DNA of 63,703 nucleotides, counting the filler, from Diploschistes diacapsis (Eukaryota), in the NCBI GenBank assembly GCA_023645945.1. It is 6 parts of 6 records of this genome, joined end to end, with 100 filler letters (N's around TTAATTAATTAA, not from the genome) between each part and the next. Parts side by side here need not be neighbours in the genome. Positions count along the whole stretch, not along the records: positions 1 to 29,481 come from JALAIB010000135.1; 5 more parts are not named here. The stretch is one strand, 5' to 3'. Made by a program: the position numbers and the translations under genes. The notes beneath the pieces are model-generated. The model saw nothing but the letters and a program-made list of their open reading frames with translations, was not told the origin of the DNA and did no database searches. This document shows, in pieces, positions 2,964 through 56,984 of the stretch. How positions within the stretch are numbered: position 1 is the first letter of the stretch; each line of letters begins with the position of its first letter.

Positions 2964-5149
2964 ATGAGCGTTATCGTATCGCTGCGGTCTTCTGGATCTA
3001 AAGCAGTGTCAAAAGCAGTGTGCCATCTTGACAATGAACCTATTACTGCTGCGGAGTTTGACAGAGCAGTCTCGAAAACGTTCAGGATCTCTGGAACTAC
3101 TCGACATGCCAAGATTGGTATCAAAATCTTTTGTGTTCATTGGATTCATTACTGAGAAAATGTGGCAGGTCTTGCAATCAGTGGTGGAGTCGACTCCATT
3201 GCATTGGCCTACCTATGGCGCCGAAGAATGAAAAACTCGTACCAGCGTTATCAAGGGCTCATAGTTGATCACAGTTCGTGGCACGGCAGCTTTCGTGAAG
3301 CCAAAGAAACAAAGGCTATTCTCGACAATCGCCTGGCATTCCGTTCTAGTGCGTACTTGTTATTCTGTCTCTGTCCTTTCTCTCACCGCGAGCAGGAGAT
3401 GCAGCACAGCCAAAGATATTTACACTTCAATGGCCACCGCGTCCACTCCCTATGCAGTTGCCGAATTTCGAAAGTGAAGCTCGGCGCCTCCGATATGAAG
3501 CTCTTGGGATAGGTTCGGTAAGGCGCAATATCGAGACTATCCTTGTTGCTCACCATGCCGACGATCAAGCCGAGACGATTCTTGCTCGGCTCGCGAACAA
3601 TCATCGCGGTAGCGGGCTCACTGCAATGAAGCTTTCAGCTCAGATACCAGAGTGTCGAGGTATTTTCGGTGCTTATGAAAGTGGCAAATTTATGGATCCC
3701 GAATATGAGCAATCCTCCGGCAGCTATGTAGGTGGCCCTGAGGAAGGTGGGATTACAGTCCAGAGACCTCTTCTAGATTTTCCGAAATCTAGGCTTGTGG
3801 CTACTTGCAGAGCTGGGGACATACCTTGGGTTGAAGACAAGACTAATCAAGACCATACGCTTACGACACGGAATGCCATTAGGAAACTACTCAGTGAAAA
3901 CCTGTTGCCCGCCGCTTTGCGTCGTGATTCGCTACTCAAGTTCTCCGAGAACATCAGAGAGAGTATCGAGGATCAAGAAAGTCTTGCCAACAAGCTGTGG
4001 GTAGCAAGCGATGCCCGCTTTGACTTACGTTCGGGTTGCCTTACCGTAGAACTTCCGGATCCAGAGCTCATTTTCAAACGGGAATGGTCTTGGTGGACCT
4101 TCGAGTGGAAGCAGCAAATCTGTAAATTATACTTGCGGTCACTCGGTCAATGCGTCGTTGCCCATGAGACTATGCGCTTGACGTCTCTTGAACGTGCGCT
4201 GGAGGTTGTCTTCCCCAAGAGCTTCTCGAACCTGGAACACCCACGAGAGCAGATGATGGTGGAAGCGGGCGGCGTGATCTTCGAGAAGGCGAAAAAAAGC
4301 GGCACTTCGGCGGAGTGGATTGTGTCCCGCCGACCTTACAGTTTCGGTGATGCTCCTATTCCAATGCCTGTTCCTGCCGAGCATCTTGCTCCGGGGAGAA
4401 CCATTGAGTCTTTGAGATCGCCAAACTATCTCATGGACCATACGCAGCTATGGGACGGCCGGTTTTGGATCAACATCCGCAACCTTGGGCAAGAGACCGT
4501 TTTTGTAGTACACCTGCTACCTAAGTACTTGAACAGGTTCAAGAAGGGCTTGCCCCAAGAAAAGAGGAAGTTGTTGGAAACTCTCCTAAGCCAGGTGGCA
4601 CCTCGCAAAATCCGCTGGACCTTACCAGCGATAGTATTGTTACGCCGCTTCCCCCCCCGGAAAAAAAGTGGTCCAAAACACAAGTACTCACCCATCAAGG
4701 GAAACCTGTTCAGAAACATCCCTACGGAAAGTGACATGGAAACACGGGACGAGCAACCCTTATCTGGCGATAATACACCGGGAGCCGACAACAGCTACAA
4801 GCCCTTGGGCGTTGTAAGCACCTCCACCTCTGATCCCGTTAAGGAGAAAACCGGAGAACCTGCAACAAAGATGATAAGCTACGACTTGGGAATAATGTAC
4901 TCGGAAGAGGAGATACAGGATGCGGAAATCATTGCGCTGCCAACCATGGGGTTTGTTCTTGATGAATGGAAGGACAAGCTGATCTGGGACATCAAGCACA
5001 AGAAGCTTCCGCTGCAAGGGTTCCAGAGCGCCCAATGGCCAAATCTGGCGGAATACCCGCATATTGTGAGGAAGAGGGCCGAATCTAGCAGACTGCCCAC
5101 ACGTCCTGAGGAGAGCTATAATGATGCATGGATGGAAGATTTAGAGTAG
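2964..5149 (+). CDS. tilS: tRNA(Ile)-lysidine synthase-like PP-loop ATPase, 3 exons
   Basis: Introns 3118-3168 and 3349-3395 join three ORFs in frame. Motifs AISGGVDS (PP-loop), IVDH, EARRLRY, AHHADDQAET, RPLL and EDKTN...TRNAIR match the TilS/MesJ family. Confidence 0.85.
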
Positions 5150-5738
5150 CACTGTATATCATGGTATTATGTATTCTAGCTCATACTGCTAAAACTGCTA
5201 ATTGGTATTTTGGTTTGTCTTGTTGTTGATAGCTGGTTTTTGTGAGATATCGTGTCTCGGGGACATCATCTGTTGTTGGATAAAAAGGCATAGAAAGCAG
5301 TAAATTTCCGAATAAACCATCAAATTTTCATCTCCTTGTAGCAGAGTCTGCTCGATCGATTGCTCCTTAGTACATAACCACTTCCCAATCCTCCGGTTCC
5401 TAGTCTTAGCACCTTTGGGTAAGGTTTCATGCGCTTGCAGGTATGGTGATGAGTTTGCTCAAGCGAACCTCTCTCGTACATCGCCTCTTCCTATCTCCCC
5501 ACTCTTCCACTCTCCTCTTGTACGCGGTAAAACCCCGAGCTAAACCCGGACCCCGTCCTCCTCATAATCGCAATAGGATAAGAAGCGAAAGAAGGAGACG
5601 GAGACACCGGAGTCACCACACCAAACCACCAATCTCATCACAACCCACCACCTCGGCCAAGTTTCGAAAAGTCGTTTCCCAAAAACTAGCTCTGCCATCT
5701 CAGCTCCTCCATCCGCTACCTTCGTCTCCCCACCCCCC

Positions 5739-6989
5739 CTAAACCCCAAGATGCGTCCTCACATGCTTCCCCAAATCCTGGCTCCGCCGGAACCTCTTCC
5801 CGCACACGTCACAGGCCAGCGGCTTGTAGGCCCCCATATGGATCCTCACGTGCGACGTGATGTGGTCCCTCTTCGCGGCGGTGAAGCGGCAGCCGGCCCA
5901 GCCACACGTCAGGTTCAGATTGCCCGTCTTCTTGCGCCCGATGTGCTCTTCGTTGACGTGCTCGAGCAGCGCGCTGGTGTCGGGATAGGTGTTGGTGCAG
6001 AGGCGCCAGTGGCAGGGGTGGGTGGCTGAGGCGGGGATGGTGGTGCTGATGGCTAGACAAGGGCGGGAGGTCGGAGTGGGAGCCGGAGCTGGAGTTGAGG
6101 CTGATGCTGGAGCCGAAGCCGAAGTTGAAGCTGACGCCGATGCTGAGATTGGAGCTGCGGGTTGGCCTGAGGGCGCAGCGCGAGCGGCAGCGGGACGTGA
6201 AGGTGAGGAGGAAGTGGAAGTGGAAGGGGAGGAGAGAGACGAATCCGAATTCGCGCGCGGTGCCTTCTTCTTCTCTTTGAGCCCCATGTGGTCTTCGTGC
6301 AGATGCTTGATGAAGGCATCCGTGTCAGTGTAGGTGTTGGTGCAGGTGCTCCAGTGGCAGTAGTGGGCAGGTGCTGTGGTGGTTGTGGAGGTGATGAAGT
6401 GCGGAGATTTGCGGGCGGTGGGAGGGGGTGCTGAAGCAGAAGTGGGGACGGGAGCTGCAACTGGAATTGAGACTGCGGCTGGACCCGGAGCGGCATCGGC
6501 ATCGGAAGGGGGAGGGGAAGGTGAAGAGTCGGGGAAAGCGGAAGAGGAAACAATAGACAGAGCGGAGTGGGCGAACCGTTCGAGCCGTTGCGCTGGTGGC
6601 TCGGGCCTGCGAAAGCCGAGGATGGTGCGTCCACTCCGGCTGCTCCTCGGCGTGTTCATATGTGTCGAATCCAGAGCGGGTCCAGCGGGCGGGCTGAGGA
6701 GCTTCGCGTGCTTGACTCCATGCACGGAATCAAAGTCCGAAGAGTCTGACCTGCCAGATGCGTCCTGCTCTGAGCTCCTCGCGGTCCTCTTATCCATGTC
6801 TGAGGCACCACGTTTTCTATAGCCAGAGGCAGGAGCGCTGGCCAAACTGCCTGTCATTCCCAGCACTGGGGTACCAGAGTCTGATGCCTGATGCTTGACT
6901 CGCTGGAAGACAGGCAGTTTGCCGTGTTCAAAGGTCTTGCTGGACGCCCTGTTGTTGCTCATCATGTTGTCGGGCGATTTTCCTGCCAT
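5739..6989 (-). CDS. C2H2 zinc-finger protein with a PacC/Rim101-type triple finger at the extreme C-terminus plus an extra upstream finger
   Basis: CHWRLC...[24 protein letters not shown]...[12 protein letters not shown]...[25 protein letters not shown] closely follows the PacC DNA-binding domain. Start codon uncertain. Confidence 0.8.
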
Positions 6990-11641: not shown

Positions 11642-14600
11642 CTATGGAACATCGCTATCAGAAATGGCAGAATCCGTGACCTCATGTGAATCGAGAACTT
11701 GCTGTGACCCTAGCTGTGTGTCCTCATCGGTACCATTCTCCTCTTCGCTTTCGTCGTCCTCTTCATCCGTTCCTTCCTCGTCCGAGCCCGCCAATTGGGC
11801 ATCCGGCGGTAAATTTCCCCTTTCGATGTGCGTGCGTATGGACTCCCGCAGGGCGTGCATTTTTGCTTCCTGCGTAATGTTGCCATGGGCCTTATGATAC
11901 GCTTTTGTAGGCCCTAAGCCAGCATGAAGGGGTAGTGGATCGGGGCGGCCCACCGCGCGAGCATAAGGCGTAACTTGTCTGCCTGTGGAGTCGCAGAGAT
12001 AGACGGACGGATCAACGACTGGCAAAAGATTAGAAGCTCAGTCACGAATCCTTGCGTGGGTATGCAAGTATGCTTTTCAAGTCTCACCAGCTGGATGAGT
12101 CGAGGGTCCGTCACCCAAACTCGACGCCATTTGGGTAATATGACGCTCGTCGAGGTGCTCTTCGAGAAGCACTGGATCCCCAAAATCAATCTGGTTCTGT
12201 GGACAATGGATCCAGTAACAATGCAGGGCACCGTCAGCGGATTTTTGAGGCTGTGAAATGTGGACATTCTTGACGTGCTTCTTCAATGTGTCCAAATTAT
12301 GTAGCTTAACAGTACAGTCACCCCAGGAGCAAGGGAACTGAATGTATTGGTCGGTGTCAGGGTCTTCGTCTGCATATTGGTTCACAGCCTTCCAGGCTTT
12401 CTTTGGGCGCTTGAATCGAGGTTCAATATAAGAGAGTGGAGTGTCTTTCAATGAGGAAGACGGGGAAGGAACGACAATGCCAATGCCATCTACAGGAACT
12501 TCTGTATTAACTTCGTCTCTTGGCTTTGGGGGCCGCCCAGGCTTCTTCGGGTTATTGACTTCGTGTCCTGACTCTGTTGACTGCCCAGGTCTTTTTGGAG
12601 CAAAGGGTGAATTCTTAGAGCCTGGAGGCCGACCTCGCTTCCTAGGCACTGAGCCAGAATCTGGGCTTTGACTTGGGACGACCTTGGAGGGAGTAGAGTG
12701 CGAAGACTCAAGAGGGGTCTTGACTTTCGGTGGCCGTCCCCTCCTCTTCTGAACCTGCTGGATCGGATTGAGCGACTGAGAGGAAATTCGGATAGATTTG
12801 GGTGAAGAATTCATGGGTAGTTGATCCACAAGGTTTGGTGGATCCTGCAGAACATCTGCAGACGCTGCAACCATCAAATTGCGCCTAGGACTTTCTTGCA
12901 TGACAGCCTCATCTTGCGTGTCAGATGGTGAGTCTACTTCCATGGCGTCAACGTGAGCGCGATCTATGGTCTGCGAAGAACGTTGAGAGGTGGAGGTTAC
13001 CTTGTTGTTTTCTTCTTGACTTTGGTGTTGAGTAATCAGTGTGTTTGGCTGGGTTTCTATAAACGTGGCTGGAGTCTTTTCAGAGCGTGTTTGTTGGGAG
13101 GATTGAACGATTCGAGACGCGTCTCGCGCGCGAGGGCGTCTTCTGCTGACTAAGCCACCTCTAATCGGGTCTGGCTTAGGCTCCTGATCTTCATTTTGGG
13201 GCTTGTAATCGACAATAGATCTGGTTCCAAAGATAAGGCCCCTCACTCTAGGCCTACCCCGGCGACCACGACCTCTTGTCAGAATGCTGTCGAACCTCTT
13301 AGGCTGTTCATTGTGAGCAGCAGCGTCAATGCGATTCGAGTCTTTTGAGGAGACGTTCAGGGCGAGCGCCATATCATCCGGGTTTTCGCTGTCGGACACA
13401 CCTTCAAGAGACGGCAGGACTGTGCCCGGAGGCGGTCCACCAGGGTCTACAAACTCCCAACGAAAGGTGCTGAGATCGGACTTCGTCGTGACGCTTTTGA
13501 AGTTCAAGGCCAGATCCCGCATGTGGAAATTCAGAGGTCTTTCCCTAGGGTGCTCTCCCTTACTAATAAGAATGTCCCGAGCCAAAGTGCTCACATTTAT
13601 ATGCCGATTCTTCAACGCTTCGGCAGCATTGATCGGTTTCACAAGGGCTGCATTCCGCAGCTTTTCCCGCAGTGAGCCTGTCTTATCGTCCTCGAGCCTG
13701 AATCTGTCGAAATACCCAGGCTGTGGGTCTGCTGGTAGGTCTCCGGTCGATACGTATGAATGCTTGGTGGAGTTTTCAAGGTTTGGGTCAATTGCTTCAC
13801 TTTGACTTGGACCTGAACTCGTCAAAATCAGACCAGAACCAACAATGGGGGAAATTGCTTGCTCCTTGCCTGCTTGATCATTCCCTGGCCTTTGCGACTG
13901 GTGCTTCTTTGCTTGGCTCTCGTCATCAGAAAGTTGTGAAAGGTCGACAATTTCGCTGAAATTTCGCTTTCGGGCCGCTTGCTGTTTGGTTGGGGCTGGG
14001 GCCGAGCTGGAAGGAGATCCGCCAGTGATCATGCGCATCTTTTCGTAGTAAGACTTGTATTCTGGAGGTATGCTGTTTGGGCCATTGGGAGTGGGTAGCA
14101 CTGGAGAAACCACATTCGTTGGACTTCCAGAATTTCCTGCATTTCTCTTCTTTCCCTTCTGTGCTGACACTGCGGCTTGTGTTAGGTTGCTGTGCCACTT
14201 AACGGAAGTGCCAGAGCTTGGTTGGTTCTGTCGAGGTGTGGCGTTCCCGTTGGCAGAGGAAGCTGTTTCGTCTTTTCGCGCTCTTTCGTGCTCCATTTTG
14301 GGCGCATTGTCAGAAGCCCCATTTTGAGGAACCACAGAAAGTAGTGTCTTTGCAAAAGGCGCGCGACTGAAATGAAAGCCCCTAGCATTGAGCAGTCCAC
14401 AAAGTTGATCGTACGATGGGTTTTGGTTCAACATCGTGTGAATTTCCGAGGATGCAATGAATTTGCCCTTGTTGACCTCCAAGCCTTCCAAGAATTTTTT
14501 TGCAAACTCTGCTAGTAAAGGTTTCTTCTCTTCTGGCCAAATGGTGGACCGCGGGGACTGTACCGGTGGAGAAGACTGCTGACTTGATGGCGTAGGAGTT

Positions 14601-16351
14601 GGCGTATTATGAAAAGCCTGCATAGCACGACGCATGGATTCGGCGCCAGCATCAGCAGGCGATGTCAGTGCTTGGGGTTTTATATTTGCTCGTGAGCCGG
14701 GGGTCTTTGTAGGAGGAGCAATCTGTGCACCAGCCTGTGGCGACGTTGTGGTCGTTCCTTTGCTAACCCTTGCGATACCTTTATCGTTTCTCCTTCTCCT
14801 ACGCATTGCTGGAAACTTTCCCAAGTCAGGGAGCTGCCCTTCTCCTTCAGCTTCCCCTGCTGATGGAACCATGTCCATAACTGGACTTGGGAATGCTTGA
14901 GCATCAGCATTTGGCGACAGTACAGCAGTTTCGGTTCCCGATGTAGATCCTAGTGTAACAAAGGCTTTACCTAGCTGAGGCGTTTGTGACGCAACGCGGG
15001 CAGGTTGTGGCGGCTGTACCTTCTTGAACTGCTCCCACATTTCACTGAACCCTGTAGGATCTTCTGCTTTGTACTTGCGCATCTTATCTATCATGGCCTT
15101 CATCTCGGCCTGTATGTGCTCACGAGCTTGGCTCTCTGTGCGTGTGTGCATGGAACCATCTTGCAGCGTAGACTGCGCTTGAACAACAGTCGGAGATTGC
15201 CCTTGATGCTGTGGTAATTGCTGAGCAATGTTTGTGGATTCGTTCTTTTTTGAGTTCCTTGCTGCCTCTGCTTCTTCGGCAGCTCTCTTTCGTCGCTGGT
15301 ACTCCGCATGGTCGAAAACTTGATTGGGGTCAATAGTTGCTGGCTGAACCTCATCAGTAGGTGTAGGTGCTGAATTAACAGTGTCTCGTCCTTGGCTCGA
15401 ATCCGTGTACGATTGCATTTCCCCTTGGTATACGCTCGGCTTCTTCTCCTCAATTGCTGGTGGCTCATTCTGGTTCATGATAGCTGAAATTTGATGAGCT
15501 TTGGAGCTTTTCCCGTTCTTTTGGGTACTTCTAGCCGAAGCCAGAGCTGGTTTTGCAGCGGGTGCAGAGCCTGCTGAAGCTTGTGCACTTTGCTGCTGGC
15601 CTGTTCGTGGTCTTTGTGTAACACTCGGTGAGCGGACTGCTTGCTGTGACATTGCAGATGTCGGACGACTTTGAGCGGGATGATTAGGTCGATATTGCAA
15701 TGGCGCCGATGGTGCTTGCGAAATCTGCTGCGATTGTGGCTGCCGTGAAGCTTCGCGAGGATTTGCGTAGGTCCCAGGAGTTCTTGTTCGCTGAAGCTGC
15801 GCCGCTGTTTCCAGTTTGGACGCTGGAGGTTGTTGATACTGAGCAGAGTCTTGTCTCATTTGATAGGTAGGCATAGAGGACTGTTGGCGGCTACCTAATT
15901 GAGGCTGTCCAGCAGCTGGGCTGCTCCTTCCAAGGGTGGAGGCATAAGCCAGATTGCCTAGCGCAGAATTGTCTGCGTAGGAGCGACTGGGCTGATCCGA
16001 CGAAGCTTGGCTCGTGTAACCATAATTTGAGGCCGTCGCTTGCGTAGTAGGTAAATAGGATTGGGATTGTGAATAGGCGTTCGTGTTTTCTGTGGCAGCT
16101 GTCTGCTGATACTGAGGCTGTGAATAATAGCTTGACTGGAAGTTTGGATTTTCAATTGCAGGCTTATTTTGATACTCCTGTTCTCTCTCCGATGACTGTT
16201 GCGCGTACTGCCCGGTTGGTTGATAGTAAGGCGAATAGGGGTTCTGGTAGGCTTGAGAGGTTGAATTAGACTGCTGACTTGCGCTTTGGCCCGCTTGTTG
16301 CCCCGTATAGTATTGCGAGTAGTTCGAATAACCGTAACCATCGTAGGCCAT
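11642..16351 (-). CDS. Large (~1546 aa) predicted nuclear protein: Q/Y/S-rich N-terminus, several AT-hooks, two C-terminal C2H2-like fingers; 2 exons
   Basis: ATG 16351; intron 12087-12019 (GTGAGA...CTAAT...CAG) keeps frame. AT-hook cores RRGRPR, KRRGRPPK, RKRGRPPG, KPGRPPK. Fingers CSWGDC...HVKNVH and CYWIHC...HLDERH. Acidic tail. Confidence 0.75.
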
Positions 16352-16851
16352 CTTGCAAGCACTAGACTGATGGCGAGCCAGACCCAGAGCAGTTACGACA
16401 CCACGCGTAGACTGAGACGCCACTCACGCGAGGTGCGAATGATCGAACGCCTTTACAGCGTGAGATAAGTCCGTCAAACCGTAGACACTAACATGATCAT
16501 GAATAATCGATGAAATTACATCCAATGCAAATGGATGGTGAGAACGCGTTGGGCATAGAACACAGTCCTGTCGGCGGCCCGCTTGAACTAGAAGTTTTCA
16601 TTTGCTACTCGGTATTAAGTGTACTTAAATCCGGTAAGGCTAGAACACGGTCTGACTGCCGCCCACAAATCTCTCGGTTTTGAGCGATATTATGAAAGTA
16701 ACTATCAACAGATAATCCTCAAACCATTGTCGCCCACAAATCTGAGGACACGTCCTTGAAATCGTCGTAAGCAATCACTAGGTTATTACCGCCCGCAACA
16801 TCTGTAACTCACACGTGCCACAGGTAAAGTAGATATCAGGTCACTACCACT

Positions 16852-53400: not shown

Positions 53401-56400
53401 CCTTGATTATAGATCCAGATAATTATATTAGGAACGCTGCGTACGAAGCACTCGGAAGGCTGTGTAACGGCTCCGGAAATAGCTTGACTGCGACTGTTGT
53501 GAATAGTCTAGTAGAGACAATCGTGTCGAATCGAGAGCCCAACGCTCGAGCTGGATGCGCGATGGCTCTCGCCTCGATCCATTCGAGCGTTGGTGGTATG
53601 GCAGCAGGCTTCCACCTGCGCAAGATCCATGGAATTTTGCTCTCACTCTGTAGCGACCCGCATCCGACAGTCCACTTCTGGGCAATTGAAGCACTGTCGA
53701 AGGTGGCAGAATCAGCAGGCCTGACTTTCTCTGCTTACATGCCGAGCACTCTGGGTCTGCTAGCTCAACTATGGGTATCCGATTCCCACTGCGAGGAAGC
53801 CGATGCCATTGGAACCTCAAATACGGAACTCGAAATGCCAACACCAGCGGTCATCGCTCACTCCATCGCCTCGCTCATCAACGTGCTGGGCCCAGACTTG
53901 CAGGATATGGCCAAGCCTCGCGACTTGATATTCACCCTCGTCAAGCAGTTCGATCTGGACGAGCAGCCAATGGTACAAGCGCAGGCCTTGCAATGCTGGG
54001 AACATATTTATCTATATGCAGCACCACATGTCGAGTTCGCGAGGTATGTGCGCCAGCTACAGAAGGGTCTTGCAAACCCAGATCTGGATGTACATCGAAT
54101 GGCTGTGAATGGTCTGTACAGCCTTATGCAGCGTAGCGCCCAGCGTACACTCGATGCCGCTTCGGAAGGCATTGAAGATCAGATTTGGAGTTCTCTGGAC
54201 AAGCCAGACGATCAGAAAGGAATCAAAAGCATCATCGATGTCTGGTTGAGCCAGACATGCCTCGAGCAGCCGGCACAGTGGATTACCAGATGCCAGGAGA
54301 TGCTCACAAAGACAGTAGCCAAGGTAAATGACCCTGCGTCAGCCCAGGAATCAAAGGCCGATCAATCAACTGCACCAGCGATGCAAGATGAGGAAGTTGC
54401 TGGTTTCAATGTGGGCGAGTCAAAAGATGATGATGCAGGCACAGGTACTGTTGGCCAAGAGCTGCTCAGGTGGCAGATTCGTGCTTTTGCTCTCAGCTGT
54501 CTCAATTCCGCATTCGTGCTATGCGGTAAGGATCTTCACACTAACCCAGAGTCTGAAGCTGGCCATGTATTGCAGTCGAAGGTAGGAGATATCATCCGCA
54601 TGGCATTCCTGGCTTCTACTTCCTCTGTCGTAGAGCTTAGAATAGGAGGGCTGAAGCTGATCGATCAGGTTCTCTTGGTAGGGACCACTATGTGCTCTTC
54701 GGATGACCCAGCTAACATTTAGTGCAGCAATTCGGAAGAACTCCTGACCCAGACTTCGCAGAAGCGCTACTTCTGGAACAGTATCAAGCTCAGATAAGCT
54801 CTGCACTTACGCCAGCGTTTGGCGCAGATTCGACGCCAGAGTTGGCTTCGGCGGCTGTCAATGTCTGCGCTACTTTCATTGCCACTGGACTTGTGACAGA
54901 TGTCGATCGTATGGGGAGGATTCTAAAGCTTTTGGTATCGTCGCTGGCAAGCTTTACCGGTAAGGCCCTTCAGACATTTCTCCCATGGCGTGACTTCGCT
55001 AACCGAAACTAGTCGCGACCGGCGATCCATCTATTGGCGACTTAAATGGCCTAAGCTCAAACGCTCAGAGGATGATCAAGATGGCGGTTCTGTCCGCTTG
55101 GGCAGAGCTCCAGGTAGCGAGCGCTGAGCAGGACTATCTGGTAGATGTTGTCAAGCCACACGTGACGAAATTGACTCCTTTATGGCTTTCCTCCCTACAG
55201 GACTTTGCCCGCTTGCGATTCGAACCTGATATTTCTAGTACCGTTGGTAGTGGGCCTGACGACCCATTAGACACCGTTTATGCTGCACTGAATCGGGAGA
55301 CGTTGCTCAAGGTACGATATCGAAATTGTATGTGTTTGTGGGTATGGCGCTGATGGCTACCGAAGTTCTACCAGGATACGTGGCTTACACTTTTCGAAGC
55401 CATCGCGAGTCTCATCGATCAAGATAGTGATTTTGTGTTTGATGCTCTGGATCGGAAAGAAGACGGCAAAACTCCAAATGGAACGGTCATCAAGGGGCAA
55501 CACATTAATTATCGAGACGAGCCAGTAGCATTCTTCTTCATCCTTTACGGTGTCGCTTTCGAGGCGCTCGTTACACGATCCAGCAATACGTCTGACAGGC
55601 GAGACCAAACCCTCAAGATTTTGATTGCTCTTAAGAAGATCCTCCGACCGTCCGTAGCAGGTCATGCTATATATCAGGATGTCGTCTTTTCGGAGACTAT
55701 GGACGTCTTCGACCGTCTCGCTCAGACCGAAGGCCTCGCGGTTCAATCAGCAATCGTTGAGGTTACACGAAATCTCTGCTTGTCCCACCCTTCTGTCGAC
55801 GAAGAGGCCAGCGAAGAGCATCTCTCAGACGACATCGAACAACTCTTCGAACTAACCCGCATCATCGTCCTCGTCCTCGCCGGCGTCCTCCCCAACCTCA
55901 GCGAGAAGCCCACCTCCCTCCGCAACCCGCTCTCGGACGAAGCAGTCAACCTCATCTCCGTCGCCCTCTCCTCCCTCGTCGACGCCGCCGACGTCTTCCC
56001 CTCCGTCATTCGCACCGACCTCCGCTCCTGCATCACCCACATCTTCACCACCATCCTCGGCACCGGCGCCTGCCAGGCCCTGGTCGTGCCCCGCATCCTG
56101 CCCATCTTCAAACGCTTCGTCCAAAACCTCGCCGAAGACCTCGACGAGTCCTCGAACCCGTCCCCCATCTCCGCCCAGCTCCGCATCACCCTCTCCCGCC
56201 TCCGATCAATCCTGCACAACGCCCAGCGCCGCGAAACCGAAGCCAGCCTCCAGTGCGCCCGCAACACCCTCATGGCATCCGTCATCCTCCTGACCTCTTC
56301 CTCCTCCGGCGGCACCGGCATTCCAGCCTCCGACCCCCAAGTCCCGCGCATCCTCTCCGACCTGCTCGACTGCCTCTCAGACCTGGGCCTCGGCAAAGTC

Positions 56401-56884
56401 GCCGCCAACTGCAGCCGCAGCCTCCTGCTCTCGGCAGCGGGGGCGAGCGCAGAGACGGACACGGACACGGACACAAAGGCCCGCGCCCCCCGACCCCTCG
56501 CCGACTCCATCGCGACCTTCCTCCTCCCGCGCCTCCTGCACTTTCTCCTCGCCGACGGCGACGGCGACGACACCACCAACACCCAGCCCGACCCAGACGG
56601 CGCCCGCCCCATCGTGCTGAACGCCCTGCTCTCCTTCCTCGCGGCCCTGCGGCCGGGCCCGTCCGAGCGCAGGACCGCCCTCCTCTGCGTCGTGCTCCCC
56701 GCCGTGCTGCAGCGCGCGCAGGTACTGGGGAAGGCGTCGTACGCGGAGTTCGCGGCGCGGCTGGTGGCGATCGCCGCGGCGGACCAGGCGGCGTTTCGGG
56801 GCGTGGTGGCGGGCTTGGGTGCGGAGCAGAGGGCGCTGGTGGAGGATGTTATTTGGGCGGGGAGCAGAAGGGGAGGAGGAAGGG
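50406..56884 (+). CDS. LAA1: HEAT-repeat AP-1 accessory protein Laa1/HEATR5, multi-exon (extreme 3' end lost in gap)
   Basis: About 2000 aa across spliced ORFs. Motifs ELDVQKLHSLPSEQQ, GPNFVKVHLSQLLLMWRNALP, REPNARAGCAMAL, CSDPHPTVHFWA, PDPDFAEALLLEQYQAQISSALTPAF and DFARLRFEPD. Confidence 0.9.
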
Positions 56885-56984
56885 NNNNNNNNNNNNNNNN
56901 NNNNNNNNNNNNNNNNNNNNNNNNNNNNTTAATTAATTAANNNNNNNNNNNNNNNNNNNNNNNNNNNNNNNNNNNNNNNNNNNN
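56885..56984. other. Artificial contig spacer
   Basis: N44-TTAATTAATTAA-N44. Confidence 0.98.

Follow-up and report, generated by a model that had tools for sequence, protein, structure and literature searches.

The window analysed here is a stretch of DNA of 63,703 nucleotides from Diploschistes diacapsis (assembly GCA_023645945.1). On its minus strand it contains an intron-free open reading frame (ORF) that runs from an ATG at 6989 to a TAG at 5741-5739 and encodes a protein of 416 amino acids (aa), designated P0001. The NCBI nr database holds an identical record, a singleton in 90% clustering. Three C2H2 zinc fingers occupy the C-terminal 93 residues of the protein, and they are of the type found in PacC/Rim101, the central fungal pH switch that is controlled wholly through its C-terminal tail. 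The last zinc ligand, H413, is followed by L, G, V and the stop, which is the fourth codon past finger 3, exactly where the initial annotation had placed it. The features of the gene and of its downstream flank are as follows.

5739..6989, minus strand: P0001 coding sequence, 416 aa and TAG, no introns (ORF reading; NCBI nr record)
6366..6989, minus strand: N-terminal region, aa 1-208, S/A/P-rich, predicted disordered (AlphaFold2 (AF2); block means of the predicted local distance difference test (pLDDT) 40-54)
6285..6365, minus strand: extra finger 1', aa 209-235, C211-x-W-x2-C216-x12-H229-x4-H234 (Pfam; AF2; GC content at third codon positions (GC3) 81%)
6272..6396, minus strand: upstream copy of an internal duplication (125-nt direct repeat, 70% identity, partner at 5927-6051)
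6021..6284, minus strand: S/A/P/T low-complexity spacer, aa 236-323 (hexamer microsatellite-like arrays at 6087-6146 and 6210-6230 by Tandem Repeats Finder; GC at second codon positions 90%; pLDDT 44-54)
5943..6020, minus strand: finger 1, aa 324-349, first half of the tandem CWCH2 unit (alignments; pLDDT 88-93)
5838..5906, minus strand: finger 2, aa 362-384, with the second Trp and KRDHITSH (K373 through H380 invariant in the alignment)
5814..5837, minus strand: finger 2-3 linker, 8 residues, MGAYKPLA (7 residues in PacC; alignment and tblastn gaps)
5751..5813, minus strand: finger 3, aa 393-413, recognition helix R-S-Q-D-L-G-K-H (alignments; six basic residues kept)
5739..5750, minus strand: C-terminal residues L, G, V and the TAG (window sequence)
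5150..5738, no strand: intergenic stretch of 589 bp from the P0001 stop to the stop of a PP-loop gene (GC 47%)

Finger 1 has the form C326-x-W-x2-C331-x12-H344-x4-H349, finger 2 the form C362-x-W-x2-C367-x12-H380-x3-H384 with KRDHITSH in it, and finger 3 the form C393-x2-C396-x12-H409-x3-H413 with the helix R-S-Q-D-L-G-K-H. C326, W328, C331, C362, W364 and C367 are invariant alignment columns, and the tryptophan between the cysteines that marks fingers 1 and 2 of PacC is present in both. In Pfam the protein matched Zap1_zf1 (E 9.6e-13, two stretches) and zf-C2H2 (E 1.2e-5). Alignments, tblastn and Pfam thus agree with the initial annotation on a PacC-type three-finger domain at the extreme C-terminus that carries both tryptophans and the signature helices of fingers 2 and 3. 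An AF2 run on full-length P0001, with 13 PacC rows covering the fingers, folded aa 321-416 into three beta-beta-alpha units (block pLDDT 68-93). The best solved match to this model in Foldseek was the five-finger GLI structure (2gli_A, E 8.5e-5, root-mean-square deviation 4.1 Å over 97 columns); other matches were ZIC3 (5.6 Å), the tandem-CWCH2 protein AEBP2 (11.1 Å) and classical three-finger proteins (8.5-14 Å). The model fits a predicted packing of fingers 1 and 2 as a single tandem CWCH2 unit.

The stop codon and the surroundings of the gene

The stop codon adjoins a run of G at 5733-5739, of which the first G is the stop codon's own and the remainder lies downstream of the stop. A sequencing or assembly error at this homopolymer, raised beforehand as a possible cause of the stop, was rejected, for the stop survives any length change in the run. 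Loss of one G leaves TAG intact, and gain of one G brings the downstream frame to another stop within about 19 codons; shifting the GGGG ahead of the stop leads into a 72-aa frame that is rich in W and G and is not PacC-like. In a brute-force test of all GT...AG introns starting in the final 120 nt of the ORF no spliced PacC tail was found, the longest extension so derived being 86 aa and not PacC-like, and no GTRNGT donor is present in the final 150 nt of the coding sequence. A PP-loop gene on the plus strand (3350-5149) is convergent with the P0001 gene, and as its stop lies only 589 bp away there is no room for a PacC tail downstream.

The neighbouring genes encode a PP-loop ATPase, Tma46, a mitochondrial carrier, an NmrA-like protein, a VTC-domain protein, an HBS1-like GTPase and an arrestin-like protein, so that the P0001 gene sits in a core region among housekeeping genes. 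A transposon-rich accessory setting is not seen at the locus, as judged from these neighbours and with no dedicated transposon search made.

Relationship to PacC

Five PacC proteins, from an Onygenales species, Clonostachys, Lepidopterella, Thielaviopsis and Mycena, were used as tblastn queries against the whole 63.7-kb window. Each gave one strong match, at 6014/6023-5751, with 50.5-60.2% identity over 88-91 aa and E-values from 1.5e-25 to 8.8e-32. No further PacC-like sequence was found in the window: all remaining matches had E-values of at least 9e-5, and these fell in an unrelated finger gene at 12137-12343 or in finger 1' of P0001. Together with the intron test this upholds the earlier statement that no PacC-like sequence continues in other frames. 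The nearest named relatives returned by word-index searches with whole P0001 and with aa 205-416 were likewise all PacC/Rim101. In the five queries, which are 568-720 aa long, the fingers are found within residues 43-207 and 400-500 aa come after them, whereas in P0001 the fingers occupy aa 324-413 of 416.

Identities were calculated from an alignment with 17 ascomycete and 2 basidiomycete PacC rows, using the 87 columns that begin with the first Cys and end with the last His. The fingers of P0001 are 55-61% identical to the ascomycete rows and 49-52% to the basidiomycete rows. Among themselves the ascomycete rows are 79-99% identical (median 88.5%, 136 pairs), and 62-68% identical to the basidiomycete rows; conservation in P0001 is therefore below orthologue level. 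One could suppose that P0001 is the sole PacC orthologue of the organism, with its tail lost and its fingers moved to the C-terminus. We consider this highly improbable, as the protein stands further from ascomycete PacC than basidiomycete PacC does and every named relative has N-terminal fingers and a tail of 400-500 aa. The PacC architecture of N-terminal fingers and a long C-terminal region with two YPx[L/I] motifs is not that of P0001, which fails as a PacC orthologue both by divergence and by architecture. Judged by its sequence, the DNA-binding module is nonetheless derived from the PacC fingers and has the make-up of a PacC-derived tandem CWCH2 DNA-binding module.

P0001 keeps 39 of the 52 columns that are invariant across the 19 PacC rows. 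The 13 changes, which include residues flanking the recognition helices, spare the 12 zinc ligands, the 2 Trp residues, helix positions -1, 1, 2, 3 and 6 of finger 2 and positions -1, 2, 3 and 6 of finger 3. The hypergeometric p for the sparing of these 23 positions is 1.1e-4, and 8.5e-3 for ligands and Trp alone, the positions having been chosen post hoc. Kept as well are the PacC signature residues of the DNA-reading helices, KRDHITSH in finger 2 and R..QDL.KH in finger 3. The base-contacting positions R-1, Q+2, D+3 and K+6 that had been listed are all in place in finger 3, and the finger 2 helix, K-R-D-H..S, is also as in PacC. Beside the helices, the PacC consensus T-T-T-V reads F-T-A-A in finger 2, and A-F-K-R-P reads R-F-R-R-S in finger 3. 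The linker between fingers 2 and 3 has 8 residues as opposed to 7 in PacC, and in 51 of 52 PacC-type loci from the metagenome scan described below tblastn placed a one-residue gap relative to P0001 there. The exception is L052, where tblastn placed the gaps elsewhere, yet the linker reads VPLKPHK as in the other PacC loci.

These differences bear on a second alternative, a functional factor that has departed from PacC in specificity or role, towards another DNA site or towards protein or RNA contacts made through the tandem CWCH2 unit and finger 1', and which would not act on the pH regulon. Positions -1, 2, 3 and 6 of both DNA-reading fingers are those of PacC, and under the general rules of C2H2 recognition identical helix positions predict the same core site, which makes such a shift unlikely. 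In its favour are the longer linker, the F-T-A-A and R-F-R-R-S changes beside the recognition helices, the inability of the solitary finger 1' to pair with a finger 2 of its own, and the precedent of GLI, whose first finger makes no DNA contact and for which regulatory roles have been suggested in the accessible part of the source (PMC2837044).

A maximum likelihood tree was calculated from 20 rows, excluding the partial predictions P0011 and P0012, locus L035 (intron read-through) and incomplete or duplicate loci. P0001 does not group with the basidiomycete pair. It lies on a very long branch, with 5-6 changes per column, its placement is unresolved and the bootstrap had not settled, and with such a branch and position no origin of P0001 can be read from the tree.

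Absence of the regulatory region

The motif YPx[L/I] is absent from P0001, whereas two copies are found in each of the six PacC proteins examined. Vincent and colleagues named YPXL/I as the PalA-binding motif in the title of a 2003 paper. With the stop three residues after finger 3 and not a single such motif, the inhibitory tail is lacking as had been proposed. Since there is in addition no room for protease boxes or interacting regions, P0001 is predicted to be neither held inactive nor activated by way of Pal/Rim proteolysis. In A. nidulans about 80 aa lie between the fingers and the PacC27 processing site. According to the available part of one account, PacC is made as an inactive 72-kDa form from which Pal signalling removes the tail in two steps, and truncated alleles of A. 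nidulans with products close to active PacC27 cover residues 5-251 or 6-253 (PMC4832277). Fingers 2 and 3 of PacC bind GCCARG, with finger 1 helping indirectly and finger 3 carrying the nuclear localization signal, as stated in the accessible text of another (PMC12193740). In the window GCCARG sites number 81 against 83 +/- 10 expected, a count that is uninformative.

The N-terminal region and an internal duplication

The initial annotation described some 320 aa of disordered sequence ahead of the fingers. For the most part this proved correct: aa 1-320 are rich in S (18%), A (15%) and P (12.5%), the pLDDT is 40-54 over most of this region, Pfam assigned no domain to aa 1-208, and the protein atlas gave no usable match for aa 1-205. 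The exception is aa 209-235, which form a fourth finger. This finger 1' is the best Zap1_zf1 stretch of the whole protein (aa 211-234) and has a predicted helix at 223-234 (block pLDDT 70), and it keeps all four zinc ligands and the Trp with the spacing of finger 1.

The two copies of the direct repeat are spaced by 345 nt, that is 115 codons, so the duplication is in frame. Fingers 1 and 1' have about 17 of 34 residues in common, including C-T-N-T-Y-x-D-T, as compared by eye and not computed, and by the same visual comparison they look closer to each other than to finger 1 of PacC, which would date the duplication after the split from PacC. This suggests that finger 1 was duplicated inside the P0001 gene once it had left PacC. 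Between the copies the ratio of nonsynonymous to synonymous substitution rates (dN/dS, Nei-Gojobori) is about 0.49, from 37 codons only, which are too few to weigh. As a solitary copy of finger 1, finger 1' cannot make the usual pair with a finger 2 of its own.

Searches for relatives

An orthologue of P0001 was not found in word-index, HMMER or metagenome searches. The word-index search with the whole protein returned P0001 and five PacC proteins, and that with aa 205-416 returned P0001 and six others, namely the PacC-type proteins P0007-P0009, the basidiomycete P0010 and the short or partial predictions P0011 and P0012. With aa 322-416 there were 12 candidates, of which P0001 alone passed E 1e-8, a weak blank in that known PacC proteins were missed. 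In HMMER the 102-aa finger domain was used as the query; the best 150 matches were mostly poly-finger proteins with 7-52 matched stretches each, and among the matches listed no other few-finger protein reached 155 bits (an estimated 70% identity or more). Note that relatives within 50% overall identity are hidden in this search behind P0001 as the cluster representative. The metagenome scan gave 53 loci, 44-66% identical to P0001, made up of 52 PacC-type finger loci and one chance match of 11 residues, with no close relative or orthologue among them. The protein atlas returned generic C2H2 clusters only for the whole protein. Of seven neighbouring proteins that were looked up four were found, all of them singletons at 90% identity; the lack of close orthologues of P0001 therefore says little, because the genome as a whole has no close sequenced relatives.

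All 52 PacC-type loci of the metagenome read ...KRPQDLKKHVK... in finger 3. The frame following finger 3 is open for 265-493 codons in 10 loci and is broken within 65 codons in the others. Many break right after HVK, and the continuation TH-ADDSVL resumes 51-53 nt on as a separate match in L007, L008, L010 and L015 and lies inside gapped matches at other loci; from these sequences the break is a conserved intron. More generally, ascomycete pacC loci often break at two points, ahead of [D/E]H[IV]CE in finger 1 and between HVK and TH in finger 3, which are conserved intron positions. Neither is used in the seven loci L001-L006 and L013, nor in the P0001 gene, which in this respect is unlike many pacC loci.

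P0011, of 238 aa, carries PacC-type fingers behind a stretch of about 150 residues rich in S and has HIGRKKT in common with P0001. It seems to have been read into an intron in finger 3, and probably represents a Rim101-type gene from a distant fungus rather than an orthologue of P0001. Precomputed Pfam assignments place PF28334 on seven ascomycete PacC-type proteins (P0002-P0005 and P0007-P0009), and not on P0001, the basidiomycete P0006 and P0010 or the short predictions P0011 and P0012.

Signs of a translated gene

The finger domain has a GC3 of 87.5% and finger 1' one of 81%, as compared to 50-64% for the remainder of the ORF. Six of the seven neighbouring genes have 46-56%, and the seventh, the HBS1-like gene, has 74.5%. 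A GC3 excess of fingers over tail is seen in 7/7 intron-free canonical pacC loci, and the peak in the finger-coding parts of the P0001 gene fits selection on a translated domain. The gene has no signature of repeat-induced point mutation (TpA/ApT 0.27).

These data matter for a third alternative, by which the locus is a partial duplicate of pacC that is decaying or has never had a function: finger exons copied beside low-complexity DNA, in an ORF held open by its composition and either unexpressed or without effect. If the gene were silent it would be an annotated relic only. Other frames around the ORF are also open, for 114-200 codons, in a GC-rich repetitive stretch, and the missing orthologue, the 13 changed positions, the linker insertion and the very long branch all agree with such a history. 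Against it, all 16 zinc ligands of the four fingers, their three Trp residues and all recognition positions have been kept in spite of about 40% divergence, GC3 rises to 81-88% exactly in the finger-coding parts, the dN/dS of the internal duplicates, weak as it is, is about 0.49, and the annotators of the genome predicted the same 416-aa protein. Taken together we hold decay or birth without function to be improbable.

A proposed Pal-independent regulator with PacC-type fingers

By a modest degree the likelier case is that P0001 is a lineage-restricted, Pal-independent transcription factor that would read GCCARG-like sites through a PacC-derived module. Such sites are its most likely target because the recognition-helix residues of fingers 2 and 3 equal those of PacC. 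The module would descend from the ascomycete PacC three-finger domain, a tandem CWCH2 pair and one classical finger; it forms the very C-terminal end of a protein that is otherwise S/A/P-rich and mostly predicted to be disordered, with finger 1 internally duplicated at a later stage. The activity of P0001 would then be set by its own transcription, by protein stability and by the N-terminal region. We infer its expression, its DNA specificity and whatever role it may have as an activator, a repressor or a competitor of PacC.

A number of observations weigh against this reading. The region between finger 3 and the PacC27 site is missing together with the tail, which makes P0001 shorter there than any known active form of PacC. 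A quarter of the PacC-invariant positions (13/52) are changed, some of them beside the recognition helices, and the linker joining fingers 2 and 3 has one residue more. Linker insertions are known to weaken DNA binding, as in the +KTS form of WT1, and in P0001 the longer linker, like the changes on the flanks of the helices, may reduce or shift its binding to DNA. No GCCARG site is present between 5783 and 7656, a range that includes the region upstream of the gene, and for want of such a site nothing ties the gene to control by PacC. As the flanking low-complexity DNA is open in several frames, the length of the ORF is weak evidence of a real gene. Further points are the long, unplaced branch in the tree and the failure of the searches to find an orthologue. 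The earlier interpretation, a protein that could bind PacC sites constitutively as an activator or a dominant-negative competitor, is thus maintained as to the PacC-derived domain, the contact residues and the missing tail, and is qualified by the changed invariant positions, the longer linker and the spare finger.

A more far-reaching version of the regulatory reading is tentative and, as it stands, doubtful. In this version P0001 would be a young, taxonomically restricted regulator that arose when PacC fingers were grafted onto the end of a disordered protein. It would hold GCCARG sites whatever the pH, in competition with both PacC72 and PacC27, and so limit the pH regulon from below or from above. 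Finger 1' could serve as an alternative partner for finger 2, possibly as an intramolecular switch in place of proteolytic control. If the Pal-independent reading is true, the pH regulon is tapped by a signal-independent factor, and a new transcription factor has been made in three steps, in which a DNA-binding domain was duplicated in part, one finger was copied internally and low-complexity sequence grew.

Comparison with known systems

Like P0001, the PacC/Rim101 proteins, among them those of Clonostachys (P0003/P0004), Thielaviopsis (P0007) and Lepidopterella (P0005), have three C2H2 fingers, of which the first two bear a Trp between their cysteines. They also agree with P0001 in the GRK.T.NLNLTC linker and in the motifs KRDHITSH (finger 2) and R-x-Q-D-L-x-K-H (finger 3). 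P0001 differs from them in the position of the fingers, in the lack of a C-terminal region and of YPx[L/I], in its extra copy of finger 1, in the additional linker residue and in a finger identity of no more than 55-61%.

With the tandem CWCH2 proteins GLI, ZIC, Zap1 and AEBP2, as described in the accessible text of PMC2837044, P0001 has in common two consecutive C-x-W-x2-C fingers and their predicted packing as one unit. It is unlike GLI in sequence (29% identity), and its number of fingers and signature are those of the PacC class. In the Twincl class of the same source (468-1458 aa), too, a long protein with little conservation ends in the finger unit; as described there Twincl has the tandem pair only, unlike the three-finger C-terminal domain of P0001 (PMC2837044).

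The window itself holds a Twincl-like ORF on the minus strand (12077-16423), of 1448 aa and rich in S, Q and P, which ends in two C-x-W-x2-C fingers in direct succession and has weak Pfam matches only (Zap1_zf1, E 8.8e-4; zf-C2H2_aberr, E 8.4e-4). A protein starting at its first Met has no entry of its own in the protein collection. A copying of the P0001 fingers from this ORF was rejected, since the two agree by 34% over 44 aa (E 2e-5) and PacC matches far better. Elsewhere in the window, positions 1-500 have a GC content of 71.6%, as against the usual 45-55%, with a G/A/P-rich open frame that runs off the window end, and a run of N, an assembly gap, is found at about 56890-56940 within a long GC-rich open frame on the plus strand (55354-56940).

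A close parallel comes from Fusarium oxysporum NRRL 32931, for which the available part of one report describes three truncated pacC genes on lineage-specific chromosomes that have lost the C-terminus and kept the DNA-binding domain (PMC6994591). The truncated PacC_b was nuclear, and one truncated gene was nuclear and pH-induced (PMC6994591). Truncated forms of PacC act independently of pH, and the authors proposed the same for these copies (PMC6994591). Accessory pacC copies are enriched in clinical strains of F. oxysporum, in the accessible text of a further study (PMC9934661). Compared by description only, these proteins and P0001 both have PacC-type fingers and no C-terminus. The F. oxysporum genes lie in transposon-flanked accessory regions and the P0001 gene among housekeeping genes, and a long N-terminal extension with a spare finger is not described for the F. 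oxysporum genes in those parts of the sources. No report of a tail-less PacC gene outside Fusarium, of C-terminal PacC fingers or of a duplicated finger 1 was found in open-access text. The novelty of P0001 is lower than had been assumed, because tail-less homologues of PacC have already been described in clinical strains of F. oxysporum (PMC6994591; PMC9934661). If our reading is true, P0001 is a second independent tail-less case after these accessory copies, here in a core region of the genome. Tail-less PacC-type genes are thus known, and what P0001 would add to them is the C-terminal position of the fingers and the duplicated finger 1.

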